Under the pieces are notes generated by a model. The model was not told where the DNA came from. It did no database searches and was given only the letters and a program-made list of their open reading frames with translations. Shown piece by piece: positions 56,269 through 56,456 of a stretch of 64,000 bases of DNA (position 1 is the first letter of the stretch; each line of letters opens with the position of its first letter). The stretch is from Escherichia coli (lineage in GTDB: Bacteria > Pseudomonadota > Gammaproteobacteria > Enterobacterales > Enterobacteriaceae). A program made the translations under genes and the position numbers. Location of the stretch: assembly GCF_003334305.1 (NCBI RefSeq), contig NZ_QOWS01000003.1, one strand, 5' to 3'.

Positions 56269-56344
56269 GCGGGAATAGCTCAGTTGGTAGAGCACGACCT
56301 TGCCAAGGTCGGGGTCGCGAGTTCGAGTCTCGTTTCCCGCTCCA
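56269..56344 (+). tRNA. glyV: tRNA-Gly(GCC), copy 1
   Basis: GCGGGAATAGCTCAGTTGGTAGAGCACGACCTTGCCAAGGTCGGGGTCGCGAGTTCGAGTCTCGTTTCCCGCTCCA, 76 nt with CCA; which of glyV/X/Y each copy is cannot be assigned. Confidence 0.95.
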
Positions 56345-56380
56345 AAATTTGAAAAGTGCTGCAAAGCACAGACCACCCAA

Positions 56381-56456
56381 GCGGGAATAGCTCAGTTGGT
56401 AGAGCACGACCTTGCCAAGGTCGGGGTCGCGAGTTCGAGTCTCGTTTCCCGCTCCA
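56381..56456 (+). tRNA. glyX: tRNA-Gly(GCC), copy 2 (identical sequence)
   Basis: Exact repeat of copy 1 after a 36-bp spacer. Confidence 0.95.

Follow-up and report, generated by a model that had tools for sequence, protein, structure and literature searches.

Tandem tRNA genes are well known to vary in copy number through recombination. The genes for tRNA-Gly(GCC), which reads the commonest glycine codons, raise this question in the 64,000-nt stretch of Escherichia coli DNA analysed here (the window), in which two adjacent copies occupy a locus that holds three in K-12. The missing copy was either lost from the chromosome or dropped when the sequence was assembled. Sequence alone does not separate a deletion from a collapse of this kind; as a matter of judgement, we lean slightly towards collapse.

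The two genes were located on the + strand by ARAGORN and by the Rfam model RF00005, at 56269..56344 (copy 1, the glyV equivalent, an exact match to K-12 glyV, glyX and glyY) and at 56381..56456 (copy 2, identical to copy 1). Both carry the anticodon GCC, and each received a covariance score of 69.1 bits (gathering score, 29). Self-comparison gave 100% identity over 78 nt, with a start-to-start distance of 112 nt. The initial annotation of two identical 76-nt genes separated by 36 nt was thereby confirmed, and two identical 76-mers at such a distance are far beyond anything that chance could plausibly give. The spacer between them (S1, AAATTTGAAAAGTGCTGCAAAGCACAGACCACCCAA; 56345..56380, + strand) is identical to the K-12 glyV-glyX spacer and contains a small hairpin, GTGCT-GCAA-AGCAC, at 56356-56369 (predicted fold, -7.2 kcal/mol). 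By position, copy 2 is a glyX/glyY hybrid, with S1 on its 5' side and, on its 3' side, a glyY flank that matches K-12. When the tRNA and the spacer were compared with the whole window by blastn at low stringency, no third Gly tRNA copy or fragment and no remnant of the second K-12 spacer (S2) came to light, which bears out the annotated absence of a third copy on either side. The only additional match was a 20-nt D-arm resemblance in a tRNA-Phe gene at the pheU position (27014-27089, - strand), the sole other tRNA that ARAGORN detected in the window.

The neighbouring genes are those of K-12: orn, 210 nt upstream of the array, and queG, which comes after it on the opposite strand (compared with the homologous regions in MG1655, TUM1887 and others). 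From these surroundings, the locus is identified as the E. coli glyV-glyX-glyY operon, minus one unit, between orn and datA/queG. At the MG1655 locus the 76-mer is present exactly three times, in agreement with the three-gene K-12 array mentioned in the initial annotation, and the genes are separated there by S1 (36 nt) and S2 (35 nt, AAATTTGAAAGTGCTGTAAGGCACAGACCACCCAA). The sequence specific to spacer 2 is TTTGAAAGTGCTGTAAGGCACAG, with the variant forms ...GTAAAGCAC and ...GCTGTAAAGCAC... Instead of three genes with S1 and S2, the window contains only two genes and S1; relative to MG1655 it is shorter by 111 nt, the sum of S2 (35 nt) and one tRNA gene (76 nt). It shares with K-12 the 76-nt tRNA, the 210-nt upstream and promoter region, the first spacer and the neighbours (orn on one side; attenuator, datA and queG on the other), but the attenuator hairpin with its T-tract differs from that of K-12 by two SNPs.

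The orn-gly intergenic region, which includes the glyV-X-Y promoter (56059..56268, + strand), is identical to that of K-12 MG1655 at 210 of 210 positions. A candidate -35 element, TTGCAG (56184-56189), and a candidate -10 element, TATAAT (56206-56211), both on the + strand and read by eye, are 16 nt apart and are followed by a GC-rich discriminator, GCGCCTCCC. A sigma-70 consensus scan of this upstream region called no promoter, because the -35 element matches the consensus at just 3 of 6 positions. The predicted promoter is assigned through its identity to K-12 and the literature: PglyV-X-Y has been shown experimentally to drive the operon in that strain (PMC10950094).

Beyond the last gene, a terminator-like scan located the hairpin TglyV-X-Y and the GTTTTCGTTG that follows it (56482..56515, + strand), for which an attenuator role has been described in K-12 (PMC10950094). 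The two SNPs are at 56488 (T in the window, C in K-12) and 56511 (C in the window, T in K-12). The latter breaks the T-run (GTTTTCG in the window, GTTTTTG in K-12) and could change read-through into datA, the DnaA-inactivating locus. Within the datA region considered here (56457-57400), datA begins 19 nt past the last tRNA gene. Pattern searches placed its start at 56475..56724, with DnaA boxes at 56475-56483, 56542-56550 (TTATCCACA), 56704-56712 and 56716-56724 (- strand) and an IHF-site consensus at 56607-56619 on the - strand; the inverted repeat I3 of the window corresponds to two of these DnaA boxes. datA is outside the repeat unit, and its context is reached via read-through from the gly promoter, which governs IHF binding there (PMC10950094). 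In the glyVXY precursor, direct-entry cleavage by RNase E requires unpaired intergenic regions (PMC4191395). Since the promoter, first gene, S1, last gene, attenuator and datA are all intact, the two-gene operon would be expected to be transcribed and processed like the normal one, with two tRNAs per transcript rather than three.

The initial annotation had proposed a comparison with related strains, and the answer came from two genomes. TUM1887 (NZ_CP128963.1) differs from the window over the 64 kb by five mismatches, one single-base gap and one 112-nt indel, and carries a single tRNA-Gly gene at the locus. The second genome, CP099152.1 (GCA_029718205.1), was retrieved via the QueG and Nnr proteins of the window. 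Its array is T-S1-T-S2-T (T, the 76-nt tRNA gene), and its flanks are almost indistinguishable from those of the window: the 3294 nt compared upstream of the array are free of mismatches, and the 7544 nt downstream contain one (about 10.8 kb together). Three near-identical genomes, CP099152.1, the window and TUM1887, thus carry three, two and one copies, respectively. The window is accordingly placed, from its flanks, in the sublineage of TUM1887 and CP099152.1, its nearest relatives. Since the near-identical CP099152.1 has three copies, three is taken as the ancestral state of the sublineage, and the two copies of the window as derived, a private loss of one 111-nt unit. Among RefSeq complete E. 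coli genomes, no exact match to the window with two copies was found, so that the window may stem from a draft assembly or from one excluded from that collection. The QueG and Nnr alleles of the window are very common (about 2700 blocks), and CP099152.1 was the only genome of the same lineage to emerge.

The differences between the window and TUM1887 are all intergenic or, on the side of the window, synonymous. Two of the five substitutions fall in mutL (61651 and 62245): a synonymous change at L148 that is private to the window, and P346T, private to TUM1887. A mutator allele in the window was considered but found no support, the mutL change there being only synonymous (L148). Beside tRNA-Phe, a frameshifted partial tyrosine-recombinase/integrase remnant is annotated in TUM1887, which suggests an island remnant at that gene. 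Elsewhere in the window, two inverted copies of a BIME/REP element of about 112 nt (83% identical) flank yjeJ, at 37657-37767 and 38952-39063; these are ordinary E. coli repeats.

The occurrence of atypical arrays was analysed further in 5426 complete E. coli genomes. The chromosomal count of the 76-mer was 21,624, against 21,704 expected at four per genome (three at the locus plus glyW), and 59 of 60 evenly sampled genomes contained four 76-mers, the remaining one containing five. Three copies are kept in about 98% of the genomes. Exactly 15 genomes carry one copy at the locus. In exactly 58, S1 directly precedes the last gene; about 40 of these are two-copy T-S1-T arrays (checked in Xuzhou21 and KO11FL), and about 18 are three-copy T-S1-T-S1-T arrays (checked in the J53 hybrid assembly and AVS0753), that is, spacer-homogenised arrays occur among public genomes. 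Two-copy T-S2-T arrays were found in at least 28 genomes; in the six that were read, the flanks differ by 0.7-2%, except for the near-identical strains 143 and 2009C-3378. The two-copy total is about 80 of 5426 (about 1.5%), on unrelated backgrounds, a figure that is partly extrapolated owing to + strand S2 cases hidden in a larger class. In addition, a four-copy array, T-S1-T-S2-T-S2-T, was observed in UGBG01000002.1 (reverse-complement coordinates 3323-3732), the third copy of which bears the point change A26C. One-, two- and four-copy arrays and homogenised arrays are what misalignment among three identical units would be expected to produce. One paper puts the array at three or four copies throughout E. 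coli (PMC4539685); lower counts are undescribed there, yet plentiful in the databases.

Two other measures were discarded in the course of the census. The numbers of matches at 80% coverage or more (626 and 596) were rejected as allele frequencies, as they mix two-copy genomes with others; these counts and a 20-kb ranking were set aside because the search joins overlapping pieces differently on each strand and splits three-copy genomes. The identity bands of a query spanning the junction were likewise rejected, since the joining of pieces lifts the mean identity to 99.2%, and a listing of the exact 100% class was used instead.

The array type of the window is therefore an ordinary one, already known, and its allele is identical to that of about 40 public genomes. 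The suggestion of a strain-specific variant in the initial annotation holds in that the state is private within the sublineage, but the two-copy state as such is not unique, as the census total attests. In O157:H7 Xuzhou21 (NC_017906.1) and in KO11FL (NC_017660.1), the T-S1-T structure and the spacer are identical to those of the window, while the chromosomal backgrounds are unrelated to it; the alleles of these strains are thus independent events or independent assembly errors.

Several other irregularities were encountered around gly arrays. In 1607 of the 5426 complete genomes (about 30%), a 121-nt ERIC/IRU-like palindromic element sits precisely at the boundary of spacer 1 and the second tRNA gene, where it would be co-transcribed with the tRNAs. 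The copy in strain EC2341 (1380-1500 of its extracted locus) matches the ERIC2 primer at 18 of 22 positions and folds into a hairpin of -37.2 kcal/mol; the window contains no match to the ERIC2 primer sequence, and the 121-nt insert is absent there. In QWLO01000001.1, homology to the window breaks off inside the last tRNA gene, 18 nt short of its 3' end (equivalent to 56439 of the window), with AlpA- and ParA-like genes beyond the junction, and a genomic island appears to be integrated into the gly tRNA gene. The Rosetta2-DE3 record (NZ_CP083274.1) shows a two-copy gly array (1165-1352 of the extracted locus) with an SDR oxidoreductase gene upstream in place of orn; its chromosome yields 8 matches to the junction query, which points to rearrangement or mis-assembly through gly arrays.

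Assembly collapse of a three-copy locus is, with modest confidence, the explanation that we consider most probable for the window. Exact identity among the three genes extends over 86-96 nt, spacer ends included, and an assembler or polisher that threaded this repeat once too few would produce exactly F5-T-S1-T-F3, F5 denoting the unique upstream flank and F3 the unique downstream one. The unit dropped in this way would be the 111 nt of S2 and one tRNA gene, and the source genome would then probably be three-copy in reality. Atypical arrays are strongly concentrated in particular sequencing projects. Of the 15 one-copy genomes, 6 are TUM strains, as are five two-copy genomes, and the genomes of these strains range in size from 4.55 to 5.28 Mb. 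The project to which TUM1887 belongs shows a roughly ten-fold excess of contracted arrays. Atypical arrays are also found in 23 AVS genomes with almost consecutive accession numbers, and as pairs or triplets in each of the GF, KD, STK, AREA and 23CRST projects. Among K-12 derivatives, single submissions depart from the MG1655 norm of S1 and S2: a single copy is present in MC1061 and in OV2, and both spacers of the J53 hybrid assembly are S1. In NWU_4 (NZ_CP123008.1; 1982-2121 of the extracted locus), a 66-nt truncated tRNA is fused directly to a tRNA without its first base, and a single tRNA is annotated. An error in assembly or polishing is the most likely source of this fusion, whose plainly aberrant form marks the locus as error-prone in assemblies.

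The preference for collapse in this particular sequence rests on two considerations: the project of its nearest relative, TUM1887, is rich in contracted arrays, and it is unlikely that, of three near-identical genomes, two should by coincidence have undergone real contractions independently. Several observations run counter to it. The window bears no mark of an artefact, with clean junctions and no indels in the flanks relative to the sister genomes. All four short-read, third-party drafts of related strains carry three copies correctly, and collapse is therefore not the rule. The clustering of the AVS genomes is partly clonal, since four genomes of about 5.285 Mb include both three and two copies. 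Moreover, strains 143 and 2009C-3378, from two submissions and with nearly identical flanks, share the two-copy allele, which suggests that real contractions exist. The initial annotation had described a contracted glyVXY array and offered a variant and a collapse side by side; the contraction stands relative to the three-copy CP099152.1, and both alternatives are retained, with collapse leaned to.

A genuine deletion in a recent ancestor is a serious contender, although somewhat short of probable. In this case, RecA-mediated unequal exchange or replication slippage between genes 2 and 3 would have removed S2 and one gene. The spacer that remains corresponds exactly to S1, and no scar is visible at the junctions, as predicted for an exchange between copies 2 and 3, and the uncontracted parental array is available in a close relative, CP099152.1 (1 mismatch in 10.8 kb). 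All of the predicted exchange products occur in public genomes: T-S1-T (about 40, Xuzhou21 and KO11FL included), T-S2-T (at least 28) and single T (15), together with the reciprocal four-copy product, T-S1-T-S2-T-S2-T, of UGBG01000002.1. Assembler collapse and true misalignment, however, yield the same array products. A duplication that includes the Gly(GCC) tRNA operon has been documented with long reads in ciprofloxacin-stressed K-12 (PMC8811037). Cells survive the removal of all three genes of the array, and where redundant tRNA genes are lost, the cost is felt chiefly in rich medium and the loss is often an advantage in poor media (PMC9981150), so that the loss of a single copy is likely tolerated. 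Against a deletion stands the three-copy state of about 98% of genomes, from which it follows that contractions are either infrequent or disfavoured by selection. The concentration of atypical arrays in particular projects also weighs against a deletion, as does the need for two separate events, in the window and in TUM1887.

That the two-copy array is an inherited allele, lineage-wide or ancestral, rather than a recent change, is very improbable. Several two-copy genomes did appear among the closest 20-kb matches to the window, but this ranking is an artefact of the strand-dependent joining of pieces, which breaks up three-copy genomes and moves them down the list. CP099152.1, the closest relative whose flanks could be used, is three-copy, the other genomes that share the QueG and Nnr alleles carry three, and three copies with diverged S1 and S2 were present in every diverse E. 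coli background sampled.

It is even harder to credit that the array is a fast-changing dosage locus, tuned in nature between one and four units, of which the three-two-one series of the near-identical genomes would be a real and rapid instance. Were this so, unit number could alter both the supply of tRNA-Gly(GCC) and the datA transcription that evicts IHF, and translation capacity could be coupled to the timing of replication initiation. Finally, the premise implicit in the initial annotation, that the window is K-12 whose database copy dropped one gene, draws on a tRNA, an S1 and a 210-nt upstream region identical to those of K-12, but is refuted by the flanks, which near the array are 99.3% identical to MG1655, with 10 SNPs in the 1 kb downstream, and are far closer to CP099152.1 and to TUM1887 (five mismatches and one gap over 64 kb), so that it is barely conceivable.

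A change in tRNA gene copy number by duplication has been seen experimentally in Pseudomonas fluorescens SBW25 (PMC7661048, PMC10954465). The resemblance lies in a change of tRNA dosage through recombination between repeats. The duplications in SBW25, however, span from kilobases to hundreds of kilobases and were selected in the laboratory, whereas in the window a single 111-nt unit is missing from a short tandem array.

If the contraction is real, the tRNA-Gly(GCC) genes of this genome fall from four to three (two here plus glyW elsewhere), and published deletion work suggests that the effect on growth would be at most small and dependent on the medium. More broadly, an appreciable share of "complete" E. 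coli genomes probably misstate this 300-bp array, with errors that cluster by project, and tRNA gene counts derived from assemblies, for example in comparisons of copy number with codon use, therefore need to be checked against reads. The array is also situated directly upstream of datA, such that the distance between the promoter and datA is variable, which is relevant to the engineering and comparison of datA.
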